Virus record (IMG/VR): IMGVR_UViG_3300036985_007703
Coordinates: 96,001 to 160,000 of that record
Direction: 5' to 3' (one strand)
From: a virus
Length of the DNA stretch: 64,000 nt
Positions 3,501 through 51,288 of this stretch are shown piece after piece (within the stretch, counting starts at the first letter, position 1; each line of letters opens with the position of its first letter). A program made the position numbers and the translations under genes. The notes below the pieces were generated by a model, which saw only the letters and a program-made list of their open reading frames with translations, had not been told where the DNA came from and searched no databases.

Positions 3501-3518
3501 TGCGCATGCGCATGCGCG
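3501..3518. repeat. 18-bp palindromic motif copy 1 (TGCGCATGCGCATGCGCG), intergenic upstream of tape measure
   Basis: Read directly; one of 11 copies. Confidence 0.9.
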
Positions 3519-3521
3519 GCC

Positions 3522-3725
3522 CTATCGCCGCCGCCGTGCTCGCGCCGTGTTCGCCTCGCGCTGCCCCGCGCGCCGCTGCTCCATCTCCATCTTCTCCCGC
3601 AGCAGCCGCTGGCGCCGGCTGTAGGGCATCGCCATCGCGTCGGTGTAGTTCAACCCCATGTGTTCGATGAGGGAGAACACATCCGACTCTAGCGCCCCGA
3701 CGCTGCCGACGGGAAGAAAAAACCC
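3522..3725 (-). CDS. tail assembly chaperone -1 frameshift extension (lambda gpGT-like)
   Basis: The -1 frame after GGGTTTT reads GFFLPVGSVGALESDVFSLIEHMGLNYTDAMAMPYSRRQRLL, typical of chaperone extensions; stops just before the tape measure. Confidence 0.8.
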   Translation of the reverse strand, partial: GFFLPVGSVGALESDVFSLIEHMGLNYTDAMAMPYSRRQRLLREKMEMEQRRAGQREANTARARRRR

Positions 3726-4552
3726 GGCTGTGACACGTCCAGGCTCGCCGTCCACTCGTGCTCGCACGCCGCGCACGCGAACTCCACCTTGTCGTCGATC
3801 CCGCCCTCGCGCTCGTCGAACGCGACCCGCAGGCGCTCGCGGTCCCGCAGGGGCAGCGCCTTGAGCGCCCGGAGGGTCTCCGCCCACCCGCGGTCGCGGT
3901 CCAGGGGCCGCCCATCCACGTGCGTCACGCGGGCCGCCAGCGACAGCGTGGCGAGGTCGTCATCGCTGCCCTTGCGCTTACGCGCCGCCCACTCCTCGTC
4001 CTCCACCCCCATCACGCGCCACACCGCGGTGCGCCCGCTGGGGAGGGGCTCCTCGAAGATCCGCACCGCGCGATCCGGCATCGCCGTGATCGCCAGCTCG
4101 CTGAGGTCCACCGCAAACGGGGTCTCCTTCCCGCACTTCGGGCAGACCACCCGCATGTCGTAAAGGTCGCCCAGGGAAGCCCGCCGCACCGCGATCAGCA
4201 GCACCGAGCGGTCCATCGAGGTCAAGACGTGCGCCACCCCCCGCAGGGCCCCGCGCCCCGTGAGGGTCCCCAGCTGCACCAGGCAGTTGCCGATCATGCG
4301 GTTCAACCGCGCGATCACCGGCCCCTTGCCCGCCAGAATGTCCTCCTCCGTGCCCGACATCTCCTGCACGATATACGTGAAGTGGATCTGGCCCTCCGCG
4401 TCGATGTGCCCGCACGGCAGCTCGCCGCCGATCGTCGCCGCGCGCGGGTCGTGCAGGTTCACGCCCGCCTTCCCCTGCTCGACCACGGGCGCCGGCGCCG
4501 GCCCCGCTCCTTGCTCCGCTGGCTGCTCTTCCACGTGCTGCTCCGTCATCAT
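3689..4552 (-). CDS. tail assembly chaperone (T4 gp26-like baseplate hub/chaperone type, two CxxC pairs)
   Basis: EMSGTEEDIL, DRSVLLIAVRRASLG, CPKCG, CAAC and C-terminal GFFFP; lies upstream of the tape measure. Confidence 0.8.
   Translation of the reverse strand: MMTEQHVEEQPAEQGAGPAPAPVVEQGKAGVNLHDPRAATIGGELPCGHIDAEGQIHFTYIVQEMSGTEEDILAGKGPVIARLNRMIGNCLVQLGTLTGRGALRGVAHVLTSMDRSVLLIAVRRASLGDLYDMRVVCPKCGKETPFAVDLSELAITAMPDRAVRIFEEPLPSGRTAVWRVMGVEDEEWAARKRKGSDDDLATLSLAARVTHVDGRPLDRDRGWAETLRALKALPLRDRERLRVAFDEREGGIDDKVEFACAACEHEWTASLDVSQPGFFFPSAASGR
3719..3725 (-). promoter_or_regulatory. programmed -1 ribosomal frameshift slippery site G GGT TTT
   Basis: X XXY YYZ heptamer in the correct frame near the end of the chaperone ORF (CCG GGT TTT TTC). 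Confidence 0.8.
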
Positions 4553-4755
4553 GCTCCGCCTTCCGCTGGTTGCTTCTCCTCAGTCAACATGGTCGGGGCC
4601 CCCACCGCCCGCAGCCGCGCCTCGACCGCGCGTTCCTCCAGGCAGTACGCGTACATGCGCTCCCGCACCACATCGGAGACCGTGCGCCCGGACCGCGCCG
4701 CGTGCCGCGTCAGCTCCTCGTAGATGTCCTGCTTGATCTCGACGTTTAACCGCAT
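4549..4755 (-). CDS. ribbon-helix-helix (CopG/Arc-like) DNA-binding protein
   Basis: MRLNVEIKQDIYEELTRHAARSGRTVSDVVRERM fits the beta-helix-G-x-S-helix pattern; AGGAG RBS. Confidence 0.75.
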   Translation of the reverse strand: MRLNVEIKQDIYEELTRHAARSGRTVSDVVRERMYAYCLEERAVEARLRAVGAPTMLTEEKQPAEGGA

Positions 4756-4774
4756 GGTGGGGCTCCTTGTGTCG

Positions 4775-4813: not shown

Positions 4814-5794
4814 TCAGGCCTGCGCCACCGGCTGCTGTTGGGCGCGCCCCGCCGCCGCCTCGCGGTCGATTGCCGCCCCGCGCTTGGTCAGCTCCGCATC
4901 CGCGGCCTTCGCGCGCTGCTTCGCCGCCGCCTTGGCCTTCAGGCGCTCCTTCGCCGCCGCCGCATCCCGCTTGGTGGGCGCCGCGGCCTTCTTCTTGGCG
5001 CCCTGGCTCGCCAGCGCCTTGGCCGCGTGCTTGCTCGGGCCCGTGCCCCCACCAGCCCGGTGCTTGGCGATCAGCTTGAGGGCCGCCGCCGCCGCCTTCA
5101 CGCGCTTCGCATCGCCCCGCCCCATGCCCTGCTGCATCATGGAGAGGGCCCGCACCAGCTCCTTGTCGCCGCCCTTGCGTGCCGCCTTCAGCGCCTTGCC
5201 CACCTTCGCGGTGGTCTCCTGCGCCTTCGCCGTCTGGTAGGCCGCGTGGACCGTGCGCGCGCTCGCCGCCACGCCCCGCCCCAACGTCTTGAGCCCGCGC
5301 CCCGTGGCCCGCAGGGCCTTGCCGAAGCGCGACTTCATGAGCTGCTTGCCCTTCTTCTTGAGGGCCTTCTTGACCACCTTGAGCTTGTGCTTGCCCCGCC
5401 GCTTGAGGGCCGCCGCCTTGCCGCCCAGCACCGCGATCTTGTGCCGCATCTCGGGCGACATCGCGTCCTTGGCCGCGCCCCAGCCCTTCTTGGCCAGCCG
5501 CGCCGTGCCCTGGGCCGCCGCCTTGCCCACCGCGGCCCCCGCCCGGCCCAGCCCCTTGGCCGCCGCCTGGCCGAGGATGCCCGCCATGCGCGTCCCCACG
5601 CCCTCGTCAAGTTGCTGGCCCGCCGGCGTCAGGGCCTCCACGCGCACGAGCCCCTTGCGCATGCGCATGCGCGCCCCGCGCCCCGGCAGCGCCCCCGCCG
5701 CCACGAGCCCCGGCCGGATCGTCCCCGGCCGCTTGCGGGGCATCCGGCTCCCCAGCGGCACGGGGACCCCCGCCACGTTTGCGCTCGTGATCAC
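4814..5794 (-). CDS. Lys/Ala/Arg-rich histone H1-like protein, putative internal head protein
   Basis: 326 aa, extremely basic (KKALKKKGKQLMK, AKKKAAAPTK); candidate protease sites VRVE/A and QLDE/G. Confidence 0.7.
   Translation of the reverse strand: MITSANVAGVPVPLGSRMPRKRPGTIRPGLVAAGALPGRGARMRMRKGLVRVEALTPAGQQLDEGVGTRMAGILGQAAAKGLGRAGAAVGKAAAQGTARLAKKGWGAAKDAMSPEMRHKIAVLGGKAAALKRRGKHKLKVVKKALKKKGKQLMKSRFGKALRATGRGLKTLGRGVAASARTVHAAYQTAKAQETTAKVGKALKAARKGGDKELVRALSMMQQGMGRGDAKRVKAAAAALKLIAKHRAGGGTGPSKHAAKALASQGAKKKAAAPTKRDAAAAKERLKAKAAAKQRAKAADAELTKRGAAIDREAAAGRAQQQPVAQA
5656..5673. repeat. 18-bp palindromic motif copy 2 (in CDS, encodes RMRMR)
   Basis: TGCGCATGCGCATGCGCG. Confidence 0.9.
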
Positions 5795-10978: not shown

Positions 10979-11251
10979 TCAGTAGCCCCCGCCCATGAAG
11001 GCCTCGTCGTCCCGCGCCGCCTGGAACTCGCGCCACGCCTTGTCCTTGTTGGCGCCCGCCAGGATGAGCTTGTCGTTGGGGTAGTAGAGGACCTCCTCGC
11101 CCTTCTTGTAGGCCAGGCCCTTGGCATCGGTCCCCGCGGCCTTCGCCTTCATCAGGTAGGGGTCACGCCCGCGCCCGCCGCTGCGCCCCCCCCACTCCAC
11201 GATCGTCCGCAGGTCCGCCGCCAAGGCCCGTAGGTTCCGTGCCATCGTCAT
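10979..11251 (-). CDS. leader-bearing small protein (paralog of 10737-10973)
   Basis: MTMARNLRALAADLRTIVE/W; AYKKGEEVLYYP; AAGGAG RBS. Confidence 0.7.
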   Translation of the reverse strand: MTMARNLRALAADLRTIVEWGGRSGGRGRDPYLMKAKAAGTDAKGLAYKKGEEVLYYPNDKLILAGANKDKAWREFQAARDDEAFMGGGY

Positions 11252-11258: not shown

Positions 11259-11276
11259 TGCGCATGCGCATACGCA
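11259..11276. repeat. 18-bp palindromic motif copy 3 (intergenic)
   Basis: TGCGCATGCGCATACGCA. Confidence 0.9.
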
Positions 11277-16112: not shown

Positions 16113-16556
16113 CTACCGCTTGCGCCGCCGCCCCCCCTCGGGGCTCTCCGCAGCGTCCCCCGCCTCCGCTGGCTGCTCCTGGTCCACCGTATCACCGGAC
16201 GGCGGGGCGATCACCTTTTCCCCCGCCGCCACGGCCCGCTCCAGGGCCGTGGGCTCGACCACGCCCACACTCACGGGGGGAAGATCGGGGTTGCGCGTGA
16301 CGCCGCGCTCCGAGAAGTAACCCGCGAACTTCGTGGGGGTCAGCGCCGTGCCGCCCCCCTCCACCTGCATGGGGTGCACGCCGGGCTTCGCGTCCGCGGG
16401 CCGCCCGCAAGGGCGCAGGACTCCGCGCTTCACCATGGACTCCGTGCTGGGCACGAGCTGGTGGACCTCCACCTTGCCGTACGGCGGCACCGCCACCGTG
16501 TTGCCCATGCCCGTTGCGACCGACTGCACCCGACTGCCCGTATAGAGGTACCACAT
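16113..16556 (-). CDS. hypothetical protein upstream of sheath
   Basis: MWYLYTGSRVQ...; start overlaps the previous stop; AGGAG upstream. Confidence 0.6.
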   Translation of the reverse strand: MWYLYTGSRVQSVATGMGNTVAVPPYGKVEVHQLVPSTESMVKRGVLRPCGRPADAKPGVHPMQVEGGGTALTPTKFAGYFSERGVTRNPDLPPVSVGVVEPTALERAVAAGEKVIAPPSGDTVDQEQPAEAGDAAESPEGGRRRKR

Positions 16557-17272
16557 TAGAACTTCGCTCCTTGCCCGCCCACCGCAGGCCGGTAGTTGTA
16601 CATCGCCAAATCCACGACCTGCAGCGCCGGCCAATTCTCCGACTCGCAGAGGTCGATCTCCGCCCGCACCGTCCACGACACCGTGAAGCCCACCGAGCGG
16701 TTCGCGATGTCCGTGAGGTCGGACACGTCCGAGATGTTCAGGTCGCCCGTGTCGTAATGCCGCACGTCCCCCTTGCTGTCGGTGACGGCCAGGGGGAACC
16801 ACGGCGGCTTGCACGCCCGCAGGATCTGCATGAGCATCCGCGTGGAGTCCGTGCGCAGGCGCGCGAAGCCCTGCACGTCATAGGCGAAATTGAAGGGGTG
16901 CGCGTTCCAGCGCTCCGCATACTGGTCATAGCCGCGCTCGCCCGTGGGGAGGACCACGGGGCGCGCCCCCGGCGCCGCGATGCGCTCGGTGCCGTACCAC
17001 GGCGCCCGGTCGTAGGCCACGTCCAGGCTGTTCCGCTTGATCACGTACGCCGGCAGGATGTGGTGCTGGTAGGCGTCGTCCGGCGCGCCCCAGAAGATGG
17101 GCACGCGCCCCCCGAGGTGGGCGAGGTCCGTGGGGAGGTCGCGCACGGTCACCGCATAGGCCTGGCGCTGCGTGCCGTCCACGGCGTAGCTCACCAGCTC
17201 GCCGCCGAAGGCCCGCATCACGCCCTCATCAAAGGCGCGGATGCCCACGGTGCTAAACGCGCTCTCGACCAC
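16556..17272 (-). CDS. putative tail completion/terminator protein (gp15-like)
   Basis: 238 aa; VPIFWGAPDD, LPAYVIKR, PFNFAYDV pattern; lies between neck and sheath. Confidence 0.6.
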   Translation of the reverse strand: MVESAFSTVGIRAFDEGVMRAFGGELVSYAVDGTQRQAYAVTVRDLPTDLAHLGGRVPIFWGAPDDAYQHHILPAYVIKRNSLDVAYDRAPWYGTERIAAPGARPVVLPTGERGYDQYAERWNAHPFNFAYDVQGFARLRTDSTRMLMQILRACKPPWFPLAVTDSKGDVRHYDTGDLNISDVSDLTDIANRSVGFTVSWTVRAEIDLCESENWPALQVVDLAMYNYRPAVGGQGAKF

Positions 17273-17292: not shown

Positions 17293-17310
17293 TGCGCATG
17301 CGCATGCGCG
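17293..17310. repeat. 18-bp palindromic motif copy 4 (intergenic)
   Basis: TGCGCATGCGCATGCGCG. Confidence 0.9.
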
Positions 17311-18462: not shown

Positions 18463-19155
18463 CTAGGCGCCCTGGGCCTGCCCCTGGGGCTTGCGCTTGG
18501 TGGGCACCTGGGCCTGCGCCTTCAGCGCCCGCCGCGTCTCGTGCCCCTTCTTTGCCGCCGCGCTGCGCTTGGCCGCCACCTGCTGCACCGCCAAGGCCTT
18601 GGCCGCCTTCTTCTGCGTGCGCTGCGCGCTGATCAGCTTCGCCGCCATCGTGACGCGGCCCTCGCGCTGCTTCTCGGCCGGCTTCAACCGCTCCATCCCC
18701 ATACGCCGCGAGGCGCCCTTGAGGTGCTGGCGGATGCCCTCCATCATGCTCTGGCGCTTGGTGCGCTTGGGCCGGAAGCCGTAGTGGCGCTTCACCTGGT
18801 TCTTCCAGAAGCGCATGGCCTGCTCGTAGTTCGGCTTGCCCTTGGCCACGATCCGCCCCTCGGTCGCCATGCGCGCCACCGCGCTCCACCAGAAGGCCGC
18901 GGAGTCTGGGAACGGGATCTGCGCGGGGTCGATCAGGTACCACGGCGGCTGCAGGTAGCGCCCGTACTTGGCCTTGGCCTGCTCCATCGTCAGCTTCTCG
19001 GGCCGCGGGTTGCGCGTCGGCATGCGGGGCTGGATCGCGCGCTCCTCCAGCAGGGCCGCAAGGCGCCCCGCCAGCCCCTCGTTGCGTACGCGCATACGCA
19101 GGGGAGAGCCCGTGATCGCCCGCAGGGCCCCCGCGAGTTGCCCCGCCGTCCTCAC
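18463..19155 (-). CDS. basic leader-bearing protein
   Basis: GTG start; RTAGQLAGALRAITG...LAGRLAALLEE/R; Lys/Arg-rich C-terminus. Confidence 0.65.
   Translation of the reverse strand: MRTAGQLAGALRAITGSPLRMRVRNEGLAGRLAALLEERAIQPRMPTRNPRPEKLTMEQAKAKYGRYLQPPWYLIDPAQIPFPDSAAFWWSAVARMATEGRIVAKGKPNYEQAMRFWKNQVKRHYGFRPKRTKRQSMMEGIRQHLKGASRRMGMERLKPAEKQREGRVTMAAKLISAQRTQKKAAKALAVQQVAAKRSAAAKKGHETRRALKAQAQVPTKRKPQGQAQGA
19083..19100. repeat. 18-bp palindromic motif copy 5 (in CDS, encodes RMRVR)
   Basis: TGCGTACGCGCATACGCA. Confidence 0.85.
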
Positions 19156-38313: not shown

Positions 38314-41268
38314 CTAACCCATCAGGAAGGGCAACATGGGGACCTCGGCCTCGCCCTCGGGGCCCGGCTGCCCGGTCACCCACGCGAAATCCTCGGCCTC
38401 GGCGCGCCCCTCGCCTGGTTGTAGCACCCCGAGGGGCACCCTCGGAACTTTTTTCAGGAGCCCCGCCACGACGCCCGCCACGGCGTCCGCGCAGTCCTTG
38501 GAATTGTGCACAAACACGCCCGCAGACAACGCAAAATTGTTCCACACGTCGACCTCCAGGTCGTACACCGGCACAGGATCGGCCAACTGCACGGGGATGA
38601 CAGCACGCACCTTGTGGTTCAAACCGTGGCGCGCCAGCAGGTCACTCCATGAGGAAAACCCATGTTCGCGCAGCACCCGCATCACGGTATTGCGACCACA
38701 TCCGATAGCACGGGACGCGGCATTGGCATTGTCTACAGATGGATTACGGGCGGCCTCCAACACAACACCAAGATCCACGTCAGATCGGAACGCGCCACTC
38801 TTCCGAGCACGGGCACGTCGCTGCTCAGGCGTCATAGAAGCTATCATGCGGCTCATCGCCTCGGCATGGATGGCTCGCCCACGCGCACTCAAATTAAACG
38901 CCTGCAGACCATCGCGCACATGCTGCTCATACACAGCATCCTCTAGGTGCCGTTGGATCGTGTGCTCTCGCGAGTGGTCCTCTCGTCGAATGATCTCAAT
39001 GTTGTCTGGCCTATTGTCGGTCTTTACCCCGTTGCGATGATGCACGATCTCATCCTCGCACACAGGACGCTGGAAGTGCTCAGCCACAAGATAGTGGGTG
39101 AGTGTCCTGTGACCGTGCGCATCGGTCAGGCGCTCATACCCACCATTGACAGGCCAAACCTGACTGATAGGCATCAGACGATCTACCCCAGGCACAAGAT
39201 CGCTTGCTGGCTTGTAAGATCCATCCCGAAGCATCCACGGATGCTCTGGCGTGCAACGGACGACGGCCCCGCTGTCAAGCACAACATCCAATAGGGCACT
39301 CGTCGTTTTCGTAAGGCGCCCCCGCGCCAGCCCCGGCACAATCGTCCCATCATTCCGCGCAGAATAAACCCACACCTCGCGCCCGCATAGCTCCGCTATC
39401 GTAGGCCGCGTGCCATCCATCAAAGGAATGCGCGTCTCCCCCACAAAACATCCCGCCATCGGGTGGTCAATTTTTCCTCGCATACGATCGTGCTCCAGGG
39501 CCCGCAGCTCCCCGAGCAGGGGCGCGTGGTCGTACAGCTCGATGCGCCGCTCGTAGATCGCCGAGCGCAGGGCCTCGTAGGGCACCATCGTGACGTCCAC
39601 GCTGAGGATCTCCGAGGCCACGCCGCGCCGGCGCATCGCCTGCAGGGTGTCGGCGCTCTGGTACTGGTCGCACGAGAACCCGATCAGCGAGAACCCGTGC
39701 GCCTGGAGGTCGTAGACCACGGCCCGGATGTCGGCGAGCTGGATCTGCTCCCCCGGCGGGGGCCGCACCTGCAGCACGAGGTCGAGCACGAAGGCCGGGG
39801 CGAGGTCCGTGTAGTGATCGCCCTCAGGCGTCCGCCGCACGACCTCCACCCAGCGCTCGATGTGCCCCATGGCGATCCCCGTGCAGTCCCCCGACAGCGA
39901 GGTGTCGATGTGGACGTAGCGGAAGGCCTTGGGGTTGCGGAGGGGCGTCCAGGCCTCCTCCTCGAACCCGCCCGGCAGGCGCCGCACCGAGGACTTGGCC
40001 AGCTGGTGCCAGTGGATCACGAGGGGCTCCCCGTACTGCCAGGTCTGGCGGTGCGCGGGGTGGCGCCGCGCGGGGTCCACGGCCTCCTGGATCTTCTCCG
40101 TGCGCTGGATGAACACGCTGATGGCCGTCGTGGGGACGCCCGCGATGTCGCGGATCGCATCCTCCAGGTTGGACTCGAAGTCCACGCGGTACTCCTCGGG
40201 GACCGCGATCACGCGCGCCTCGTCGGGGAGGGTCGCGAGGTTCACCTCCTCGCCGGGGGGCAGGATGCGACTGCGCAGGGAGCTTCCCCCGCAGAGCACT
40301 TGGAAGGTGCGCCCGCTGAAGCTCCCCGGCGGCTTGACCTCCCACGTGGCCATCTCCATCGCGTAGATCGAGGGGTCGTGGTGGGCCGCCGCGAGGCGCC
40401 GGTCGATGAACGACCCCACCGTGTTTGCGCTCGACACCATCACGATCATGCCGGGGAGGTCCCCGCTCGCCTGCACGAAGCGCGACTTGATGCGGCGCTC
40501 CAGGGAGCGGTACGTGACCTCGGCGTGGTCGTAGTGCGCGAGGCTCTTCTGCTGGCCGTCCGCCGTGCGGATCTTCTGCTTGGTGGAGCGCACGAAGTTG
40601 GTCTCGTCGAGGGCCGCGGCGAAGGCGTTGGTGCCCATGGAGCGCTCGGCGAGGTAGCTCGCGACGATCATCTGCACGTTGTAGGGGAAGTACGTCGCCT
40701 CGGTGTGGACGTCGGGCTTGAAGTGCTCCTGGAAGTACGGGCTGATCGCGAGCTTGTTGTCGATGGCCGACTTGAGGACCTGGCGCGCAAGGACCAGGTT
40801 GCGGCTCACGAGCACGATGCTCATCTCGGAGCCCGGCGACATGCCGTAGGAGGCCTGCGGGTTCACGAGGCAGCTCAGCTCGTAGAGGAGGCGGCACATG
40901 GCGATCGAGAGGGCCGTTGTCTTCCCCCACCCCGTGCTGCCCCCCAGGATGACCTCGCGGTAGTGCGCGCCCGGCTCGAAGATCTCGATGAGCTTGCGCC
41001 GCAGGACCGGGTAGAGCGTCTGGCAGGATTCCCCCAGGTAGTAGGGATCATCGATAAAGGTCGCCATGTCGACAGGGGCCACGCGGTACCGCTTCGCGTA
41101 GCACTCGTTGGCGATCTCGGGGCGCCCCGCCTGCTCCTCGTACAGGAGGGCCTCGAAGAGGCGCCGCTCGTCGGGGGGCAGCGCGCCCAGGCGCCGCAGG
41201 AGGGCGGCCCGGCGCTCGGCCGGCGTGCGGACGGTCCGCGTGCGCCCCTCGGGGGTGCGGATGATCAC
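38314..41268 (-). CDS. terL: terminase large subunit (intein-containing)
   Basis: Walker A GGSTGWGKTT, Walker B AAALDE, nuclease motifs YVHIDTSLSGD and KIDHP../SKDCADAVAG. Confidence 0.95.
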   Translation of the reverse strand: MIIRTPEGRTRTVRTPAERRAALLRRLGALPPDERRLFEALLYEEQAGRPEIANECYAKRYRVAPVDMATFIDDPYYLGESCQTLYPVLRRKLIEIFEPGAHYREVILGGSTGWGKTTALSIAMCRLLYELSCLVNPQASYGMSPGSEMSIVLVSRNLVLARQVLKSAIDNKLAISPYFQEHFKPDVHTEATYFPYNVQMIVASYLAERSMGTNAFAAALDETNFVRSTKQKIRTADGQQKSLAHYDHAEVTYRSLERRIKSRFVQASGDLPGMIVMVSSANTVGSFIDRRLAAAHHDPSIYAMEMATWEVKPPGSFSGRTFQVLCGGSSLRSRILPPGEEVNLATLPDEARVIAVPEEYRVDFESNLEDAIRDIAGVPTTAISVFIQRTEKIQEAVDPARRHPAHRQTWQYGEPLVIHWHQLAKSSVRRLPGGFEEEAWTPLRNPKAFRYVHIDTSLSGDCTGIAMGHIERWVEVVRRTPEGDHYTDLAPAFVLDLVLQVRPPPGEQIQLADIRAVVYDLQAHGFSLIGFSCDQYQSADTLQAMRRRGVASEILSVDVTMVPYEALRSAIYERRIELYDHAPLLGELRALEHDRMRGKIDHPMAGCFVGETRIPLMDGTRPTIAELCGREVWVYSARNDGTIVPGLARGRLTKTTSALLDVVLDSGAVVRCTPEHPWMLRDGSYKPASDLVPGVDRLMPISQVWPVNGGYERLTDAHGHRTLTHYLVAEHFQRPVCEDEIVHHRNGVKTDNRPDNIEIIRREDHSREHTIQRHLEDAVYEQHVRDGLQAFNLSARGRAIHAEAMSRMIASMTPEQRRARARKSGAFRSDVDLGVVLEAARNPSVDNANAASRAIGCGRNTVMRVLREHGFSSWSDLLARHGLNHKVRAVIPVQLADPVPVYDLEVDVWNNFALSAGVFVHNSKDCADAVAGVVAGLLKKVPRVPLGVLQPGEGRAEAEDFAWVTGQPGPEGEAEVPMLPFLMG
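38503..39450 (-). mobile_element. intein (316 aa) with HNH endonuclease, in TerL
   Basis: Starts CFVGETRI; block B CTPEHPW; ends VYDLEV...FVHN followed by Ser; internal IVHHRNGVKTDNRPDNI; lower GC. Confidence 0.95.
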
Positions 41269-42035
41269 GGGGCGGGGGCCTCAGCCTGCCCCTCAGCCCC
41301 CGTGATGTCGATGGTCTCGCTCCCGTAGAGGTCCCCGTCGTCGTCCGTGGCCAGGGTCTTGAACTCCTCCAACAGGGCGAGCACGCGCCCCCGCGCCGCG
41401 GGCCGCTGCAGCACGGCCGCCACCTCGTCCCCGAAGCGCTGCTGCACGTTGACCACGACGCTCTGGTTCATGACCACGCTGGCGCCCTTGCTGCCGTGGT
41501 TGAAGCCGTAGGCCTCCTTGACCATGTGCATGCGGCAGATGGTGTCGACCACCTGCTGGGCCGCCTGCCCCACGGCCGGGATGGGGACGCCCACCTGCTG
41601 CTCGTAGGCGAGGCCCATGTCCACCCGGCTCTTCAAGATGCGGTACATCTCCTCCAGCCGGCTGAACTCCAGCTCCTCGTCCTCCATGCGCTTGCGCAGC
41701 CACCCCGCCATGCGGAGCTGCGCGGCCCCCACGAACATCGCGCTCGGCATGTAGTTGGTGCGATAGGACAGGAGCTGGTTCTCCAGGACCCCGCGCGTGA
41801 TCTCCGTGCGCTCCTGCGCCTCATTCTGGATAAAGGCCGCCGTCGCCGCACAGGAGTAGCCCTCCGACAGCATGTCCCGCACCTGGGGCCAGCACGTCAG
41901 GGACTCCAGCTTGCGCGCCACCGCCGTCTTCGTCTTCCACCCGCTCTGGGGGGGCAACGTCGGCTTGTTGCGCTTCGAGATTGTAGGTTTGGGCTTCTGA
42001 GCCCCCTTCTTACCAACCACTCCGCCTGTCCGCAT
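41265..42035 (-). CDS. putative terminase small subunit
   Basis: Directly upstream of and coupled to TerL; N-terminal HTH-like region, helical middle, beta C-terminus (SVVVNVQ). Confidence 0.6.
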   Translation of the reverse strand: MRTGGVVGKKGAQKPKPTISKRNKPTLPPQSGWKTKTAVARKLESLTCWPQVRDMLSEGYSCAATAAFIQNEAQERTEITRGVLENQLLSYRTNYMPSAMFVGAAQLRMAGWLRKRMEDEELEFSRLEEMYRILKSRVDMGLAYEQQVGVPIPAVGQAAQQVVDTICRMHMVKEAYGFNHGSKGASVVMNQSVVVNVQQRFGDEVAAVLQRPAARGRVLALLEEFKTLATDDDGDLYGSETIDITGAEGQAEAPAP

Positions 42036-42080: not shown

Positions 42081-42098
42081 TGCGCATGCGCATGCGCA
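42081..42098. repeat. 18-bp palindromic motif copy 8 (perfect, intergenic upstream of TerS)
   Basis: TGCGCATGCGCATGCGCA. Confidence 0.9.
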
Positions 42099-42868: not shown

Positions 42869-43897
42869 TTAGGGCTTCGCGTTGCCGATGTCGGCCAGGG
42901 TGGTCTCGCCGAAGAGAATCTCCGGGGCGCCCCCCGCGAAGGCCACGATGCGGACCTGCGTGAGGTCCTGCAGGGCCTTGAGGTGCCCCGCCAGATCCAG
43001 CGTGGGATCGGGCAGCGCCGCGGCCGGGGCCTCCGGGGCCTCCGCGCCGGCCTGCTCCGCCGCCTCCAGCAGGGCCCCGCCGTAGAGCACCTTGCCATCC
43101 TTGGGGTCGACCGCCACGATGCGCCAGCCCGTCGCGTGCTCCACCTGCGCGAGGTACTCCGCGGGCTCGTTGCGGTTCATGTTCGTCGCCAGGAACTCCG
43201 TGCAGATCATCGCCAGGGCGTGCGGCTCGCTCTCCGAGGCCGCCATGTCGCACGCCTTCTTGATCGCCCGCTCCACCGTGTCGACTTGCGACCGCATGAG
43301 GTTCCGGCTCCACTTGACGGGCTTCTGCTGGATCTGGAGCTTCTCCTCGTCCTCGTCCGCCGCCGCGCCAGTCGGGAGGCCGTTGAGGCGCTCTTGCTCC
43401 GCGTCGACCTCACCCCGCACGAGCTTCTGCACGTCGCGCGTGCTCAGGCCCTCCACGCGGCCCAGCCAGTGCTCCGCGTTCTCCGCCGTGACCACCGGCG
43501 CGAGGTCGCGCGCCTTCGAGGCCCCCAGGCGGTCGATGCGCTCCTGCAAGGGCGCCGGGAGGCTGCGCCGCCACGCCCAGATCTGCACGAGGTACTGGGC
43601 CTTGCGCAGCTCGAAGTCGACCTCCGATTCCACGTACTCCTTCCACGAGGCGAACCCCCACGTCTGGTACAGCACCTTGTCGTACACGTGCCAGAGGGCC
43701 TCGCTCAGCTTCCAATAGTTGCTCTCGACGTTCGCCCGCAGGCGCTTCACGTCCTTGCGCACCTTCTCGGGCGCCCACTCGGCGAGGCGATCCTCGATCC
43801 CCACCTCCGCCGCGGGTTCCCCCACGCACGCCAGCTCCGTGTGCAGCCGCTCCGTCAAGACCTCCGGCACCGCCAACTCATCCTGCTTCTTCGCCAT
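42869..43897 (-). CDS. putative DNA-binding/regulatory protein
   Basis: YWKLSEAL...LYQTWGFASWKEYVE.E.DF..RKAQYL, a helical module seen in phage DNA-binding proteins; duplicated C-terminal RIVA segment. Confidence 0.55.
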   Translation of the reverse strand: MAKKQDELAVPEVLTERLHTELACVGEPAAEVGIEDRLAEWAPEKVRKDVKRLRANVESNYWKLSEALWHVYDKVLYQTWGFASWKEYVESEVDFELRKAQYLVQIWAWRRSLPAPLQERIDRLGASKARDLAPVVTAENAEHWLGRVEGLSTRDVQKLVRGEVDAEQERLNGLPTGAAADEDEEKLQIQQKPVKWSRNLMRSQVDTVERAIKKACDMAASESEPHALAMICTEFLATNMNRNEPAEYLAQVEHATGWRIVAVDPKDGKVLYGGALLEAAEQAGAEAPEAPAAALPDPTLDLAGHLKALQDLTQVRIVAFAGGAPEILFGETTLADIGNAKP

Positions 43898-43915: not shown

Positions 43916-43933
43916 TGCGCACGCGCGTGCGCA
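43916..43933. repeat. 18-bp palindromic motif copy 9 (perfect variant, intergenic)
   Basis: TGCGCACGCGCGTGCGCA. Confidence 0.85.
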
Positions 43934-43952: not shown

Positions 43953-44501
43953 CTAGAACAGCTTCTCTTGCTTCCACTCAAACGATCCTACGTCGACCGC
44001 CCCGCCCGTCAACCTGTGAAGGTGGAGGGCCGCCACCGCCCAGGCGTCCGCCTGATTGTGGTCCGCCACGGGCACCCCCAGCTTTATCACGTGGGGCAGG
44101 ATCTTGTCCTTCTTGAGGTTCCCCTTGCCGAAGATCTCCTTGCGGATCTGGCTCACGATGTAGAGCGCGGGCTCCACCCGGCACGCCAGCCACAGTTGCG
44201 TCTTCACGACCCCATGCAGCTCCCCGAGGTCGTTCTGCGCCCCACGCGCCCCCCAGGCGAACTGCTCGATGGCCACCCCGCAGGGGGCCGGTGCCGCCCG
44301 GTAGGCCCGCACCACCGCCGTCGCGATGTCGAGCATGCGCTCCACACGCTCCCGCGTCGTGGCCGTGCGCTTCAGCGCGTACCCCACGGTCTCCGCCGCC
44401 CAGACAGAGCCCGTGGCCCCGTCAAGCGTTACAAGTCCGGCCCCCCGATCCGAGAGATCGAGGCCGAGCACGCTCCCGAGATCTATTTTATGCTCCTCCA
44501 C
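43953..44501 (-). CDS. ruvC: RuvC-like Holliday junction resolvase
   Basis: VLGLDLS, VAIEQF, LGELHGVVK, GKGNLKKD, DHNQADAWAVA. Confidence 0.85.
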   Translation of the reverse strand: MEEHKIDLGSVLGLDLSDRGAGLVTLDGATGSVWAAETVGYALKRTATTRERVERMLDIATAVVRAYRAAPAPCGVAIEQFAWGARGAQNDLGELHGVVKTQLWLACRVEPALYIVSQIRKEIFGKGNLKKDKILPHVIKLGVPVADHNQADAWAVAALHLHRLTGGAVDVGSFEWKQEKLF

Positions 44502-44558: not shown

Positions 44559-45569
44559 TCATGGCGATGGTTTCTGCATAGATCCATCACCCGCGCACGC
44601 CTTGGCGATGTCCCGCGCGAAGCACGCCGCGCGCTGCGGGCACAACTTGGCCTTCCGATCCCCCTTGTAGCGGCACCCCGGCACGCAGCGCGCGGGCCAC
44701 GGGGGGCGCTCCCCCGCGCATCCCACCGCCCACCAGGCCTCATGCCCGGCCAGAGCGGCCCGCACATCCGCCACCGTCGCGTGCACCTCGGCCACCACGT
44801 TAGGGTCCGGGCGCACGAGGTGCTCCGCGAGGGCCCCCACCGCTGCGTCGGCCTCCTTGCGCACGTAGATGAGGCGCCCGCGCGCGAGCCCCGCCCAGTG
44901 CATGTACATCTGCACCTGCAGCGTGTGCTCGCGGAACGGGGCCCCGCCCACGGCCGGGTCGATCATGGCGAAGGCGCGGGGGCTCACCGTCTTCAGCTCC
45001 ACAACCTCTAGGGCCCCATCCGCCCACCGCAGGACCCCATCGCAGTGCCCCGTAAGGCCGTGGACGCGGTCCTGGAAGGCCAGCTCCACGTAGCGCCACC
45101 CCTCCCCCGCCGGCCGGGGGATCCAGCCATGGGCTAGGGCGGGCACCGGGGCCCTAGCGCCCACCACCCGCTCGACCGCGCGGTATTCTGGGCCCCCCTT
45201 GACGATGGGCACGTCCCGCTCCCACCACCCCAACAGGGTGACCCCCGGCAGCAGGGGCAGCAGCTCCTCCTGCCACGCGCGGTGGTAGGCCGTGCCCACC
45301 GCCGTCGCCCACACGTCCTTGGCGTCGTCCTCGCGGACCACCATGGGGGGCTCATCGGGCAGCAACACGGCGTGCGCCCGCCGCGCCCCCTCGGCCGCGA
45401 TCACGGCCCCGCGCGGGCAGAGCCGCCCCAGGCCGCTCGCGCGGAAGGGCCCGTCGCTCGTGGGGATGGGGTGCCGCTCGCGCCGCACGACCCCCGCGAG
45501 GGCGCGCTGCACGGCGTCATCGGGGGTCGTGGGGCGGGCCCACGCGTGGTCGGTGAAGGTCGCGAGCAT
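44559..45569 (-). CDS. Cas4-like PD-(D/E)xK exonuclease
   Basis: RASGLGRLCPR, GTAYH, GHCDG, VELKT, QVQMYM, C-terminal Cys cluster. Confidence 0.85.
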   Translation of the reverse strand: MLATFTDHAWARPTTPDDAVQRALAGVVRRERHPIPTSDGPFRASGLGRLCPRGAVIAAEGARRAHAVLLPDEPPMVVREDDAKDVWATAVGTAYHRAWQEELLPLLPGVTLLGWWERDVPIVKGGPEYRAVERVVGARAPVPALAHGWIPRPAGEGWRYVELAFQDRVHGLTGHCDGVLRWADGALEVVELKTVSPRAFAMIDPAVGGAPFREHTLQVQMYMHWAGLARGRLIYVRKEADAAVGALAEHLVRPDPNVVAEVHATVADVRAALAGHEAWWAVGCAGERPPWPARCVPGCRYKGDRKAKLCPQRAACFARDIAKACAGDGSMQKPSP

Positions 45570-47654: not shown

Positions 47655-48660
47655 GCGGGATCCCCTCCTCGACGGTCGCCAGGGCGCTCTCCGCCGCCAT
47701 GAGCGCCTTGGCCAACCGCCCCGCCTCGGGGTTCGCGAGGAACCCGTTGTCGCACACCGGGCAGATCGGCTCGCAGAGGCGACACCGGGGATCGTGGACC
47801 TGCGGGGGGCCCTCCACGCACTCCATGCACCCCACGCACCCATGCGAGGCGTCCCGCAGGGGGCCCGTGTAGCCGCACTCCTGGCAGGTCCCCGGCTCCG
47901 TGGTCTGCCCATCGGGCTCCTCGCCCCGCAGGTGGCCGATCACCTCCCGCAGCGCGCACCCCACGATCGCCAGGCGGTTCGTCGCGTCGTCCATCCGGCC
48001 CTCAGCGCCGCTTCCCGTCGTGCGGCTCGATGATCGCCTGGACCCGCGCCTGGAGCTGCCGCTCCTCGGCCGGGGTCCACCCGCTGGCCCGCGCGACCGG
48101 CGTCGGGGGGGGCGCCTTGCGTACGCGCGTACGCAGCTCCGCGTCGCAGGCCTGCTCCTGGTGCAGGCGCCGCGTCAGCTCCGCCGCGACCCCCATGGCC
48201 TCGTGGCTCACCACCACGAGGAGGGTCGCCAGCAGCACGACGAGGCCGCTCATCACCGCGATCCAGATGCTCCGCACGTACACGCTCGTGTTCATGGCCG
48301 GGGCACCCCCTCGATCGTGGCGTAAAAGGCCGCCACGCCGCGGTGCGCCGTGCAGGCGAGCCCCCACCCCGGTATCTGCACCACCTTGTCGTCGCCCACC
48401 TGCGGGGCGTCCGTGGTATCTCCTAGCCGCACCACGCGCCCGCAGATCCGGCAGGCCCCCACCCGCATCGCGGGGTCCGCGGGCCGCGGCGCGTAGGCCT
48501 GGTCCTCCCAGAAGGTCGCCCCGCAGGGGCATCGGTAGGCCAGCGTGGTGTTCCCGTTGGCCAGCAGGGACTGCCCCACGTCCGCCGGGATCGCCCAGCG
48601 CCCCGTGTCGGGATCCCGCACGGGGATCCCGCAGACGCTGCAGGTGCAGGGCTCCGTCAT
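47647..48660 (-). CDS. three small coupled ORFs: Cys-rich (47647-47994), membrane (48002-48295), zinc-finger (48292-48660)
   Basis: CxxC pairs; one TM helix; overlapping start/stop codons. Confidence 0.55.
48118..48135. repeat. 18-bp palindromic motif copy 10 (perfect variant, in CDS, encodes RTRVR)
   Basis: TGCGTACGCGCGTACGCA. Confidence 0.85.
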
Positions 48661-49109
48661 GGCGCCGGGGGCATCCAGGAGCCCGTCTCCAGGCGCGCCC
48701 CGAGGTAGCGCGCCACCGCGTCCAGGGGGCTGCTCACGATCCCCGCGACCTGGGGGCAGACCCCCGAGGGCTCGAACTTGGTGCCCCGCCACGCCGCCGT
48801 GAGGTCGTCGAGGCCCCACGCCCCGAGCTGCAGGAGCGTGCTCGCCTGCCGGCAGATCACCTCCAGCTGCGCCCGCGCGTCGTCCACGATCTGCGTCGCC
48901 AGCTCGTCCGCCACGGGGTCCGCGTAGCCCTCCGCGTGGGCCCCCCGGCTGATCGTGATGTTGATGTAAATGGGGCGATCCCCCGAGAACGCCACCTTGG
49001 TATAGAGGTCGTGCGCGCCGATCGTCAGCTTCGCAGTGCGCCCCACCGCCCCCTTCCCCAGACAGGCCTCGCCCTGCGCCCAGACATCGCGATGTGGATA
49101 CGCTTCCAT
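48657..49109 (-). CDS. stand-alone TSCPD-like domain (C-terminal part of class II ribonucleotide reductase)
   Basis: STLLQLG...GTKFEPSG...SSPLDAVARYL. Confidence 0.65.
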   Translation of the reverse strand: MEAYPHRDVWAQGEACLGKGAVGRTAKLTIGAHDLYTKVAFSGDRPIYINITISRGAHAEGYADPVADELATQIVDDARAQLEVICRQASTLLQLGAWGLDDLTAAWRGTKFEPSGVCPQVAGIVSSPLDAVARYLGARLETGSWMPPAP

Positions 49110-49165
49110 GCGGGCAGTTCTACCACGGATCGCCGCCCAACTCACGCTTCACCACGCCCCATCGC

Positions 49166-49778
49166 TCACTCGACCGACACGGCCCCCACGGTCCACCGGA
49201 GGTCCGCACAGTCCGCGTGAGGGCGCTCGCTCGCGTCATCGGTCGCCAGGAACTCCACGGCCCCATCGGGCTGCTCATTCCAACGCACGGGAGCCCCCGT
49301 GTCGCCCTCCCACATCCGAAAGCGATCCCCCCGCCGGATGTCCCGCAGCTCCACCTCTGCCCACTGCCCATCCGCCCCCAACCGCTCGATGCGCCGCAGC
49401 AGTTTATCAGTCGCCATGGGGATCCTCCGCCGTGATCTCCGACGCCACGCCGATCCGCGTCTTCTGCAGCTCCGCCCGGATCGCCATCAACTCCTGGAGC
49501 GTCCCGTGGAGCACCAACTGCCCCCGCCGATCCTTGTTGTGGTGGTCCGCAACGGTCATCTTTAACTTGAGGATCGCCGCCTGCCACCCCTCCTGAAACG
49601 CCTGCGCGACGAAATCCCGAGCCTCCTCCTCGGTCTTGCGGGTGATGTCGGCCTGGTAATGATTCACATACACCCCCGCCGCCCGCTTGGCAGCCATGGC
49701 GACGGTGTAGTCGATGCTCTGCGAGGCGGCCTCTGCGGCCACCCAGCGCACGTCCTCGGGGGTCATCACCTTGCCCAT
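49166..49778 (-). CDS. two small hypothetical ORFs (49166-49417, 49407-49778)
   Basis: RBS-preceded, overlapping ORFs. Confidence 0.55.
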
Positions 49779-49779
49779 G

Positions 49780-51288
49780 TCAATCCTCCTTGCCCAACAA
49801 GACCGCCAGGTACTCGTCCGCAATCGCGCGGTCGCTGGCCTGCTCCGCCGCGGGCAGCTCCGCATACGGGGTCTTGGCCTGGCGGTACCACCGCGCGATG
49901 GCCTCGTGCCCCCGCGCGAGCCCCGCCCCACCCTCGGCGTCGGTCGTCAGCGCGATGAGCCCCGCGTGCTCCCCCTGCCACGCCATCCAGCGCGCCCACA
50001 CCATGTGGACGTGATCCGCGAGGGCCTCCCGCCGCTCGCGCATGCGCATACGCAGGGCCGCGTCCGCATCGGTCAGGATCCCGATGGCCCACCCCACGTC
50101 CGCCCGCAGGAGGGATTCCAAGATCCGCTGCGCCCACGCCTCTATCTGCTCCGGGGCCACCCGCAGCCCCGCCTCGCCGGTCAACAGGCACAGCGCATCG
50201 AACACGGCGAAGGCCGCGGTCTCCTGCGCATCGGCCCGCAGCGCCTCGGCCGGCGGGGCCCCCGCCGTCAGCTGGGCCCGCTCCGCCTCGCGCTCCTGCC
50301 GCTGCTTCGTCAGCAGGAAGTCGTGCATGGCCATCATGGCGTTGGCGAACCAGCCCCGCATGAGGTCGAGGTCCGCCGTGGGATAGTGCGCGCAGTAGAG
50401 GCGCGCCCAGGCGTCCGCATCCGGGTTGAAGTGGATGCTGTGGTCGTAGTCGGCCACATCGACCGCGTCCTCGGGCTGGCCCTCGGCGGGCTGGTCGGGC
50501 GTGTCGTCACAATACGGCGCCACGGGGCCCAGGCACCGCGCGGCCAGCCCCTGCGTCACGCGCACCCCGTGCCCGCCCTCGTCGGTCCAGAGGCCCCCGC
50601 TGCCGTCCCGCACCACGCGGCGCACCACGCGCTTCTCGGCGCCATCCGCGCAGTCCTCCTCGAACCAGAAGTACCCCTCCACGCCCGGCTGCACGCCCTC
50701 GAACGTGGCCAGCAGGGCCCGGTCCACGGCCGCCGAGATCGCATCGCTCAGCGCATCGTCATGGTAGCTCCGCGAGCCATCCGGGTGCGTCGTCCACCCC
50801 TCCGCGGGGCCCAGGGCGTCGATCGTCCGGTCCAGCTGCTCGGAGAACGCCTCCAGGGCCTCCGCCACCTGCGCCCCGGCCGCCGTCACGCTGCCCCGCA
50901 CGCGCAGGTCCTCGATCGGCTCGGGGGCCTGCGTCAGCACCACGTCCACCCCCAGCACGTCGCCCTCCTTCATCTCGATCCTCGCAATCTCGGCCGCCAT
51001 GCTCGCCGCGGCGACCGCCTCGTTGTGGCGCACCATCCGGTCCGCCGTCTCACGATCGCACACCATCGGGGACGCCGGGGGCATCAGCTGCACGTCGATG
51101 ATCCGGGGCGCTACCGCCACGTAGTCCACGCGCCCCAGCGCCGCCCGCGCCCAAGGCGCCAAGATCCCCCGCGGCGCCTGGTAGGTCGGCGCCTCGGCCT
51201 GCATGCGCCGGATGCGCTGCCGGACCGCCTCGGGGTCCCACTGGAACGCGTCCCCGTTGGCGTTCCCCTTGGGATCGTCGTCACCCAT
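49780..51288 (-). CDS. mosaic multi-module hypothetical protein
   Basis: 502 aa; capsid-like N-terminal peptide, GWFANAMM module, C-terminal HMVWARW...PYAELPAAEQASDR (RyR-repeat-like). Confidence 0.6.
   Translation of the reverse strand: MGDDDPKGNANGDAFQWDPEAVRQRIRRMQAEAPTYQAPRGILAPWARAALGRVDYVAVAPRIIDVQLMPPASPMVCDRETADRMVRHNEAVAAASMAAEIARIEMKEGDVLGVDVVLTQAPEPIEDLRVRGSVTAAGAQVAEALEAFSEQLDRTIDALGPAEGWTTHPDGSRSYHDDALSDAISAAVDRALLATFEGVQPGVEGYFWFEEDCADGAEKRVVRRVVRDGSGGLWTDEGGHGVRVTQGLAARCLGPVAPYCDDTPDQPAEGQPEDAVDVADYDHSIHFNPDADAWARLYCAHYPTADLDLMRGWFANAMMAMHDFLLTKQRQEREAERAQLTAGAPPAEALRADAQETAAFAVFDALCLLTGEAGLRVAPEQIEAWAQRILESLLRADVGWAIGILTDADAALRMRMRERREALADHVHMVWARWMAWQGEHAGLIALTTDAEGGAGLARGHEAIARWYRQAKTPYAELPAAEQASDRAIADEYLAVLLGKED
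50037..50054. repeat. 18-bp palindromic motif copy 11 (in CDS, encodes RMRMR)
   Basis: CGCGCATGCGCATACGCA. Confidence 0.85.

Follow-up and report, generated by a model that had tools for sequence, protein, structure and literature searches.

What is the role of a short palindrome that recurs, almost without change, throughout the genome of a large uncultured T4-like phage? The question was raised by a first-pass annotation of a 64,000-nucleotide stretch (the window) of virus record IMGVR_UViG_3300036985_007703 (hereafter G000), in which eleven dispersed copies of an 18-bp palindrome of alternating purines and pyrimidines, YGCGYAYGCGCRTRCGCR, were noticed. To answer it, we re-examined the copies in the window, extended the search to the whole record, and compared the sites with the corresponding positions in related phages (designated here by G or L numbers). 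Gene coordinates in G000 were obtained with our own codon-usage gene caller rather than with a standard program.

Copies in the window and in the whole genome

The observation held and could be extended. All eleven copies were found where they had been placed, and a twelfth, at 33249-33266, had been missed. No copy was found between 50054 and 64000, as had been stated. The whole record (168,532 bp), which closes on itself and has all genes on one strand, contains 26 copies, and a search with the reversed pattern as control gave none. One hundred dinucleotide-preserving shuffles likewise gave no matches. In the histogram of runs of alternating purines and pyrimidines the counts fall to 2-3 runs at 16-17 bases, and then there are 25 runs of exactly 18. 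Only two further copies carry one mismatch, in both cases G at position 1, and copies with two mismatches (2) are no more frequent than in a reversed control (3). Isolated half-sites are not enriched.

Strict alternation in every variant, as well as the symmetric changes that keep the copies at 43916 and 48118 perfect palindromes, were confirmed. Twelve positions of the word are invariant and six vary only by transition. The symmetry runs through the centre (GCGC) and extends to position -1/+1, which is Y/R. Of the 26 copies, 18 lie between a stop codon and the next Shine-Dalgarno (SD) sequence (binomial P 2e-16 against a non-coding fraction of 6.3%), whereas eight lie inside genes, where they are mostly read as R-M-R-M-R. 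The copies are spaced more evenly than chance, with a coefficient of variation (CV) of 0.62 (P 0.005) in G000 and 0.52 (P 0.0005) in the related G001.

Location of the individual copies

The copy at 3501-3518 (sense strand CGCGCATGCGCATGCGCA) is in the 42-nt gap between the stop of ORF 3522-3680 and the SD of the 1108-aa gene 153-3479. The latter had been labeled as a tape measure gene. It matches no family, but it lies where relatives have a 1233-1452 aa protein between baseplate genes. The copies at 11259-11276 and 17293-17310 are in stop-to-SD gaps of 34 and 40 nt, upstream of genes 10979-11251 and 16556-17272, respectively. The copy at 29094-29111 is in the 39-nt gap after the gp13-like gene 29118-29828, upstream of 28629-29078. 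The copy at 42081-42098 is in the 75-nt gap upstream of gene 41265-42035, which had been called TerS; this gene is homologous to the gene just upstream of the large terminase gene in L203, thus it is a plausible small terminase. The copy at 43916-43933 (TGCGCACGCGCGTGCGCA) is in the 55-nt gap after the RuvC-like gene 43953-44501, upstream of 42869-43897. The labels given to the neighboring genes in the first-pass annotation could therefore be verified only in part.

Six copies in the window are inside genes: at 5656-5673 in gene 4814-5794 (read as R-M-R-M-R), at 19083-19100 near the 5' end of gene 18463-19155, at 33249-33266 in the C-terminal half of the prohead protease gene 32695-34299, at 36092-36109 at codons about 109-114 of the scaffold-like gene 35547-36434, at 48118-48135 in gene 48002-48295, and at 50037-50054 in gene 49780-51288. 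The common reading frame that had been described for five of them was confirmed, and the frame xYG-CGY-AYG-CGC-RTR-CGC also applies to the copy at 33249.

Orthologous positions in related phages

Conservation in relatives had been named beforehand as a test of whether the sites are selected. Sites persist where the surrounding non-coding DNA is only 74-84% identical. In related lineages the same positions are occupied by different palindromes, GCACACGTGTGC, GCGCACCCGGGTGCGC, GCAATCGATTGC or CGAAC-TYRA-GTTCG, depending on the lineage. The gap orthologous to that at 3501 contains the same word in L187, CGTACGCGCGTACG in L188, GCAATCGATTGC in L192, and ACGAAC-TTGA/TCAA-GTTCGT in L190/L191. The gap corresponding to that at 29094 holds the core of the word in L182, GCGCACCCGGGTGCGC in L047, CGGCACACGTGTGCCG in L046 and CGAACTTGAGTTCG in L045. 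The core of the copy at 42081 is kept in L182 (760-775) and in L199 (3309-3324). The in-gene copy at 5656 is kept in G001, G002 and G004, and as GGCGCACGCGCGTGCGCA in L189, whose neighboring baseplate protein is only 49% identical.

The most deeply conserved site is the one in the scaffold-like gene. Each lineage's own word sits here with the dyad axis after the first base of the same codon, and the encoded amino acids change to fit each word (SRMRMR, GTRVT, SRTQVR, CNRLH), as predicted for a DNA palindrome. Among 69 representative proteins the peptide pairs were T-V in 24, N-L/F in 28, T-L in 3 and N-V in none (Fisher 1e-12).

The centres of four other word families are also self-complementary (CCGG, ACGT, ACGT and CG). 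The one asymmetric centre, that of the CGAAC-TYRA-GTTCG lineage, occurs in both orientations and is flipped between the near-identical strains L190 and L191 at the same site, so the site works regardless of orientation.

Candidate binding proteins

Two proteins had been proposed as binders. The product of 4549-4755 (minus strand) is a genuine RHH_1 (CopG-type) protein (Pfam, E 3.5e-5) and the only one in the genome. However, its DNA-reading beta-strand (R-x-N-x-E/D-x-K/R) is the same in orthologues from lineages whose palindromes are entirely different, which makes it an unlikely candidate. The 42869-43897 protein, proposed because its own upstream region has a copy, matched no Pfam family and no solved relative, its AlphaFold2 model had a pLDDT of only 40, and the corresponding stretch of L182, the one relative that could be inspected, does not hold it. 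Searches of G000 for ParB_N, LexA_DNA_bind, Peptidase_S24 and type II topoisomerase domains gave no match. L203 does have a ParB_N protein, but G000 has no homologue of it. Screening against domain libraries (Pfam or PHROGs) covered 34 of the 240 predicted proteins, and among these searches no repressor was found.

Interpretation

The interpretation offered with the initial observation was supported in part. That the palindrome is a selected DNA site, and not a chance or decaying repeat, is supported, and of the proposed roles a two-fold symmetric protein-binding site (operator, roadblock or organising site) is the best reading. A parS-like site is unlikely here because of the lack of a ParB_N domain, and Z-DNA is not supported as the essential property, because the palindromes GCGCACCCGGGTGCGC, GCAATCGATTGC and CGAACTTGAGTTCG, present at the same positions in sister lineages, do not alternate purine and pyrimidine.

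We consider it somewhat more likely than not that the palindromes form a genome-wide array of double-stranded DNA recognition sites, about one per 6.5 kb, for a two-fold symmetric, sequence-specific factor, most likely an as yet unidentified dimeric protein encoded by the phage. In this view G000 carries one lineage's version of a system shared by a whole clade of T4-like phages, in which the same short stop-to-SD gaps and a fixed codon of the scaffold-like gene carry whatever palindromic word the lineage uses, all words fitting G-N-A-N, four bases, N-T-N-C. The number, symmetry, placement and spacing of the copies and the replacement of one word by another at fixed positions were shown by the sequence analysis. 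In contrast, binding itself, and the suggestions that binding punctuates or gates the long one-directional transcription units as a roadblock or operon-boundary control, or organises the DNA, and that the word and its factor drift together to give each lineage its own dialect, are inferred from sequence alone. That the factor is phage-encoded is likewise an inference: three different words occur among high-GC phages whose capsid proteins are 63-76% identical to that of G000, and this is faster than host global regulators are known to change. One observation does not fit easily. The two arms covary (Fisher 0.01 for positions 5/14 and 0.0005 for positions 7/12), which is not predicted for a dimer reading two independent half-sites, and would rather fit intrastrand pairing, in RNA or DNA, or templated correction of quasi-palindromes.

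This covariation could be taken to suggest that the element acts in the polycistronic mRNA as a hairpin of 7 bp with a 4-nt loop, serving as a processing site, an exonuclease barrier or a translation insulator between cistrons, perhaps recognized by a lineage-specific RNA-binding protein as boxB is by lambdoid N proteins. Most intergenic copies are 2-9 nt after a stop codon and 7-26 nt before the next start, where an mRNA element would also lie, and with all genes on one strand and very few intrinsic terminators, long transcripts need punctuation. Moreover, the internal half-changed states in G000 are T:G in 7 cases and C:A in 1 on the sense strand, but with orthologues included this wobble bias falls to about 12 against 7 (tallied by hand). 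We regard this explanation as unlikely. The loop is invariant and, like the centres of the four other word families, self-complementary, for which a hairpin loop has no need, and the flipped centre in L190 versus L191 would change it. Twelve stem and loop positions never change, even by compensation. The distance to the start codon is loose, ranging from 7 to 64 nt, and eight copies lie inside genes and are conserved there, across lineages in the scaffold-like gene and in gene 4814-5794. RNA folds of the sites in 58-nt context were no better than those of shuffled sequences (z from -1.1 to +0.3), several minimum-energy folds did not form the full hairpin, and a search of Rfam gave no match. 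About equally doubtful is that the words are targets of a nuclease, nickase or terminase component, whose cuts or nicks would start recombination-dependent replication, load sliding clamps for late transcription, or start or phase headful packaging. Perfect palindromes with Y/R degeneracy are typical of homodimeric endonuclease sites, the spacing of about 6 kb is even, the genome is circularly permuted, one word sits just upstream of the small-terminase-like gene in three lineages, and two sites (45687 and 41816) lie exactly at insertion or replacement junctions between G000 and G001. However, junctions at repeats can arise from plain homologous recombination, the contig ends of G000 and G001 do not coincide with sites, and no dedicated nuclease is linked to them.

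Still less likely is binding by a host regulator such as LexA, which would tie phage gene expression to the state of the host and make the word differ because the hosts differ. CGAAC-N4-GTTCG is the textbook Gram-positive LexA box, all words share its 4-N4-4 geometry, and G000 itself encodes no LexA-like domain. On the other hand, LexA motifs are usually stable over whole phyla, whereas two of the three words found among the high-GC phages (see above) come from samples of the same series. In addition, the G000 word is not known to match any LexA motif, and conserved in-gene sites and even spacing are not features of SOS operators. The least likely is a structural feature without a dedicated protein, either Z-DNA or a cruciform absorbing the supercoiling produced by one-directional transcription, or merely a recombination linker spreading by gene shuffling, like PeSL cassettes. 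Strict alternation in every copy of the G000 group, even spacing, the one-strand gene arrangement and the two junction positions would be compatible with it. But alternation is absent from the words of L047, L192/L203 and L045/L190 at the same positions, a structural sink does not need twelve invariant bases or one identical word per genome, the sites are positionally stable rather than mobile, and there are no target duplications or partial copies.

A more far-reaching possibility, which the data do not exclude but which must be regarded as speculative and unlikely, is that a clade of lytic T4-like phages uses a position-conserved addressing code, in which a core phage factor of rapidly changing specificity reads one word at about 25 fixed addresses, some embedded in coding sequence. 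Switching of the word, with all addresses following, would create mutually incompatible dialects that would work as a genomic self-identity or immunity system between co-infecting relatives, and constraints on the DNA palindrome would visibly shape the sequence of a head-assembly protein across the clade.

Comparison with known dispersed elements

Dispersed dyad repeats in phage genomes have been described. The 17-bp repeat of Cluster O mycobacteriophages (TGTTCGG-N3-CCGAACA; PMC4351075) is present in more than 30 near-invariant copies per genome, in small intergenic gaps, near gene starts and inside ORFs, with no meaningful orientation and without a known binder or function. The G000 word shares the near-invariant arms, the tens of copies, the intergenic and intragenic location and the lack of orientation, but the Cluster O phages are siphoviruses of Mycobacterium, and their repeat has an odd 3-bp spacer and invariant arms. 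Replacement of the word at fixed positions in related lineages and coding-sequence covariation, which are what is new here, are not reported in the parts of that study examined.

Stoperators of Cluster A mycobacteriophages and the conserved inverted repeats of Streptomyces phage phiC31 are also present in two to three dozen copies of one short site in short intergenic gaps, where one phage repressor reads them and blocks transcription across the genome. The G000 word agrees with stoperators in copy number and in its preference for short intergenic gaps. Stoperators are, however, asymmetric 13-bp sites with one orientation relative to transcription, whereas the G000 site is a perfect or near-perfect palindrome. 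Both systems belong to temperate phages with an identified repressor, whereas G000 is a T4-like phage with all genes on one strand.

The LexA (Cheo) box, which is bound by LexA in promoters of damage-inducible genes, differs from the G000 word, which has GCAY-N4-RTGC, i.e. a half-site GCAY instead of GAAC, and a conserved core of 16-18 bp. L045 and L190 carry exactly the box CGAAC-N4-GTTCG where G000 carries its own word. This positional equivalence shows that the LexA-like sequence is one dialect among several, which weakens a literal LexA reading. KorB operators of plasmid RK2, parS/ParB sites and the DNA uptake sequence dialects of Neisseriaceae are likewise dispersed 12-16 bp palindromic or fixed words, some inside genes, read by one protein and with lineage-specific versions. 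The lack of a ParB_N match in G000 sets it apart from the ParB and KorB systems, and nothing suggests a DNA-uptake role in a phage. REP/BIME elements are imperfect 35-40 bp palindromes with a conserved tetranucleotide, present in many decaying copies and mobilised by a RAYT transposase, whereas the unit in G000 is 18-20 bp, has no halo of degenerate copies and is positionally stable.

The word does not have the features of an intrinsic terminator, a GC-rich hairpin followed by a U run: the base after it is always a purine, often the start of AGGAG, and only four runs of six or more T occur on the sense strand of the genome. PeSL cassettes of T4-type phages (PMC2839356, PMC4122927) are short repeated regulatory motifs between genes that act as points of exchange for indels, and the sites 45687 and 41816 lie at such junctions. 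PeSLs are composite units of an early promoter and a stem-loop confined to hyperplastic regions, whereas the copies in G000 lie throughout the core structural genes and inside genes, and their positions are ancient. The GTTGACAAACC promoters of G000 are separate elements, and only the copy at G000 16927 lies just downstream of one.

Distribution of the palindrome in the genome

To determine how often the palindrome occurs, the window was searched with the pattern YGCGYAYGCGCRTRCGCR. Twelve copies were found, the 11 listed in the first-pass annotation and one more at 33249-33266, whereas none was found in 100 dinucleotide-preserving shuffles. The observation made in that annotation, dispersed copies of one 18-bp palindrome, was thus confirmed. 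The whole 168,532-bp IMG/VR virus record (G000), of which the window is bases 96001-160000, has 26 copies, and the reversed-pattern control has none. The first 341 bases of the record repeat its last 341 at 97.7% identity, and a sister contig is circularly permuted relative to it. Although the record is labelled linear and 83% complete, the genome is therefore essentially complete at about 168.2 kb, and 26 is the full count.

The lengths of purine/pyrimidine-alternating runs fall off geometrically to 2-3 runs at 16-17 bases, and then there are 25 runs of exactly 18. Only two further copies have one mismatch, in both cases a G at position 1. Copies with two mismatches are no more frequent than in a reversed control, and isolated half-sites are not enriched. 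These results show that the family is sharply bounded, with no halo of decaying copies.

The phage is a distant T4-like myovirus with 70% G+C, having a gp23-type capsid protein, a sheath, a T4-type portal and a prohead protease. A megablast search with 20 kb against named phages found no match, and the capsid protein is at most about 35% identical to that of any named phage. Our codon-usage gene caller, a home-made program whose exact start sites are approximate, places all 240 genes on the minus strand, covering 94% of the DNA. On the sense strand 18 of the 26 copies follow one layout: stop codon, 2-19 nt, the palindromic word, 7-64 nt including the Shine-Dalgarno (SD) sequence, and start codon. 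This count includes one copy that overlaps the end of the upstream gene. The enrichment in non-coding DNA is significant (binomial P 2e-16). The start codon is in frame with the ATGs inside the word in only 5 of 16 gaps (counted by hand), which is about the one in three expected by chance.

Eight copies lie well inside genes. Seven of the nine copies that overlap coding sequence are in the frame xYG-CGY-AYG-CGC-RTR-CGC, which is the only frame whose third positions are all G or C, so codon usage explains the frame preference. Several of the in-gene copies, in genes 35547-36434, 32695-34299 and 4814-5794 of the window, are read as RMRMR or RTRVR and are followed within 2-10 residues by an L-x-x-L-x-E motif, and may mark prohead-protease cleavage sites in scaffold-like proteins.

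The flanks extend the symmetry: position -1 is C or T in 24 of 26 copies, +1 is always a purine, and -2 is G in 20 of 26. The spacing of the copies is more even than random, with a CV of 0.62 (P 0.005) in G000 and 0.52 (P 0.0005) in the sister genome G001.

A conserved sigma-70-like promoter motif, GTTGACAAACC followed 16-17 nt later by a TAnnnT-like hexamer, occurs only on the sense strand, at 62676 and 46092 of the window and at 39881, 30365, 27840, 21476, 21424, 16995, 8207, 5203, 4590 and 2194 of G000, and delimits an early region of about 68 kb. Nineteen copies of the word lie in the roughly 100-kb late block, whereas seven, plus the two one-mismatch copies, lie in the early region. A T4-type late promoter was rejected as the explanation of the sites, because no TATAAAT, the 7-base core of TATAAATA, occurs on the G000 sense strand.

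The exact 18-mer is multi-copy in a 9.3-Mb Polyangiaceae metagenome-assembled genome (G010; contigs L175-L181). There are nine copies of (TGCGCA)x3, each embedded as the centre of a longer hexamer-periodic palindrome (GGGCA...TGCCC). This is a REP-like element unrelated to the phage sites.

Conservation in close relatives

Among close relatives (88-95% nucleotide identity), G001 (161 kb) has 23 copies, and the genome fragments G002-G006 carry them at the same density. The sites are positionally conserved even where the surrounding non-coding DNA is only 74-84% identical. Variation is confined almost entirely to positions 1, 5, 7, 12, 14 and 18, and is almost always a transition. Within G000 the two arms covary at positions 5/14 (Fisher 0.01) and 7/12 (Fisher 0.0005), but not at all at positions 1/18. 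When orthologues are included, half-changed states on the sense strand are about 12 T:G against 7 C:A by our hand tally, which is no clear strand bias.

In coding copies the six free positions change faster than flanking third codon positions, even where the change alters the amino acid. Third codon positions at the invariant bases of in-gene copies differ in 8.3% of comparisons against 13.9% in the flanks, but this difference is not significant (P 0.16), and several of the differences are one shared event.

Two sites lie exactly at an insertion or replacement junction between G000 and G001. At 45687 two extra small genes follow the word, and at 41816 a replaced segment ends 7 nt before it. 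Two single-copy 18-bp perfect palindromes of other sequence, GCGCGGGGCGCCCCGCGC and CGCGATCACGTGATCGCG, lie in stop-to-SD gaps at 27043-27060 and 45092-45109 of G000, and the second of these closes the two-gene insertion that begins at the copy at 45687.

Different palindromes at the same positions in distant relatives

To examine the sites in more distant phages, contigs (designated L) were fetched through the capsid, baseplate and scaffold-like proteins. Some lineages keep the G000 word. L182, L187 and L199 (capsid protein 76% identical, 65% G+C) keep the core GCGCATGCGCATGCGC at orthologous places, including the in-gene one, and L189 keeps GGCGCACGCGCGTGCGCA inside the orthologue of gene 4814-5794, although the neighbouring baseplate protein is only 49% identical.

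In contrast, other lineages have a different palindrome at the same places. The gap after the gp13-like gene (29094 in the window) holds GCGCACCCGGGTGCGC in L047, CGGCACACGTGTGCCG in L046 and CGAACTTGAGTTCG in L045, and the gap before the large 1108-aa gene (3501) holds GCAATCGATTGC in L192 and ACGAACTTGAGTTCGT in L190. Each of these words is multi-copy in its own contig: GCACACGTGTGC occurs four times in the 15.7 kb of L198, GCAATCGATTGC occurs twice in L192 and twice in L203, and CGAAC-N4-GTTCG occurs three times each in L045 and L190.

The copy inside the scaffold-like gene (36092) was studied in more detail. In an alignment of the four proteins the same columns are encoded by CGCGCATGCGCATGCGCA in G000 and L182 (peptide SRMRMR), by CGGCACACGTGTAACG in L046 (GTRVT), by CGAACTCAAGTTCG in L045 (SRTQVR) and by GTGCAATCGATTGCAC in L203 (CNRLH). 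The dyad axis falls after the first base of the same codon in every case. Internal translation starts at the in-gene copies are not conserved across lineages.

A metagenome scan with the scaffold-protein alignment returned only close relatives, whereas a profile search of 1.8 billion representative proteins found 175 family members, from which 65 of the best hits were aligned with the four references (69 sequences). The pentapeptide falls into classes such as RTQVR, RTRVR, RNRLR and CNRLH. Residues 2 and 4 pair as T-V in 24, N-L/F in 28, T-L in 3 and N-V in 0 sequences (Fisher 1e-12). A DNA palindrome predicts exactly this pairing, because the C or A at the second base of codon 2 pairs with the G or T at the first base of codon 4. 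The P value is inflated by relatedness among the proteins, but even so the pattern shows that the palindrome at this address is ancient and that the protein sequence bends to it. All the words fit G-N-A-N, four bases, N-T-N-C, which is the geometry of the Gram-positive LexA box.

Recognition of the element as DNA or RNA

Most of the observations argue for a double-stranded DNA site. The centre of the G000 word (GCGC) is invariant and self-complementary, and so are the centres of four other word families (CCGG, ACGT, ACGT and CG), whereas a tetraloop would be self-complementary by chance once in 16. In the one family with an asymmetric centre (TTGA/TCAA) both orientations occur. At one site, L190 11024 and L191 1239, two near-identical contigs differ only by inversion of the 4-bp centre of the CGAAC-N4-GTTCG palindrome, so orientation is irrelevant. 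Copies inside genes are conserved, and twelve positions never change, even by compensation. Predicted folding of the sites in 58-nt context is no better than that of shuffles (z from -1.1 to +0.3), and Rfam gives no match in the window. On the other hand, the placement between a stop codon and an SD sequence and the covariation of the arms speak for an RNA or other single-strand form. We regard the covariation as unexplained. Templated correction of quasi-palindromes during replication could produce it, and the flip of the centre in L190 versus L191, which suggests template-switch inversion at the repeat, shows that such events happen.

Z-DNA had been among the possibilities raised in the first-pass annotation. 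Strict purine/pyrimidine alternation holds only for the G000-type and L046-type words, and the words of L047, L192/L203 and L045/L190 at the same addresses do not alternate. Alternation is therefore not the conserved property.

Candidate binding proteins

The first-pass annotation proposed the RHH protein (4549-4755) and the 42869-43897 protein as candidate binders. The RHH protein is genuine, but its orthologues, always encoded just upstream of the baseplate gene, keep the same beta-strand (R-x-N-x-E/D-x-K/R) in lineages with quite different words, which makes it a poor candidate. In L187, the 65% G+C sister lineage, the RHH gene itself contains the word GCGCATGCGCATGCGC at 344-359, read in the frame A-H-A-H-A, but this may be chance. 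For the 42869-43897 protein, no Pfam family and no PDB relative was found, its look-alikes in the Atlas are unnamed viral clusters, and its AlphaFold2 model had a pLDDT of only 40.

Searches of the genes next to the sites against PHROGs and Pfam mostly returned nothing. Family searches of the G000 genome for ParB_N, DNA_topoisoIV, DNA_gyraseB, LexA_DNA_bind and Peptidase_S24 were all negative. L203 has a ParB_N protein next to its small-terminase-like gene, but G000 has no homologue of it. Taking into account that three words occur among high-GC phages whose capsid proteins are 63-76% identical to that of G000, a fast-evolving phage-encoded reader appears to be favoured over a host global regulator, but this is an inference.

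Interpretation and comparison with described systems

Taken together, the comparisons show a real, strongly selected, clade-wide system of DNA address words, whereas the mechanism, and the existence and nature of the protein that would read the words, are inferred from sequence alone. The interpretation in the first-pass annotation was thus supported in part: a selected DNA site is borne out, but Z-DNA as the conserved property and the RHH protein as the binder are not.

The closest described parallel is the 17-bp dyad repeat of Cluster O mycobacteriophages (PMC4351075). The closest mechanistic models are the stoperators of Cluster A mycobacteriophages and the conserved inverted repeats of phiC31, and for the exchange-junction aspect the closest are the PeSL cassettes of T4-type phages (PMC4122927). 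What is new here is the positional equivalence of different words, the fixed dyad axis, the coding covariation, and the argument that the LexA-like sequence is one dialect among several.

Dispersed palindromes are noted in many phage genomes and are usually left unexplained. In this case the positions are ancient while the word changes, from which we infer a co-evolving reader that should be recognizable by covariation across dialects. A DNA-level constraint appears strong enough to dictate a pentapeptide in a head-assembly protein in most of 69 representative lineages, an unusual case of overlapping codes, and the resemblance of the sister lineages' sites to the LexA box is put in context. 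If the reader controls transcription or DNA handling of a 168-kb genome transcribed in one direction, it would be a regulatory layer unknown in T4-like phages, and these phages also appear to lack the classical TATAAATA late promoter.

Other sequence features of the genome

A second inverted repeat, TTGAGT-N7-AC(T/A)CAAGG, which runs into the Shine-Dalgarno sequence and resembles the HspR-associated HAIR element, is present in three copies, at 4785 of the window (upstream of the RHH gene) and at 80273 and 60851 of G000. The large terminase gene (38314-41268 of the window) is interrupted by an intein that carries an HNH endonuclease, and relatives have inteins in both the terminase and the portal genes.
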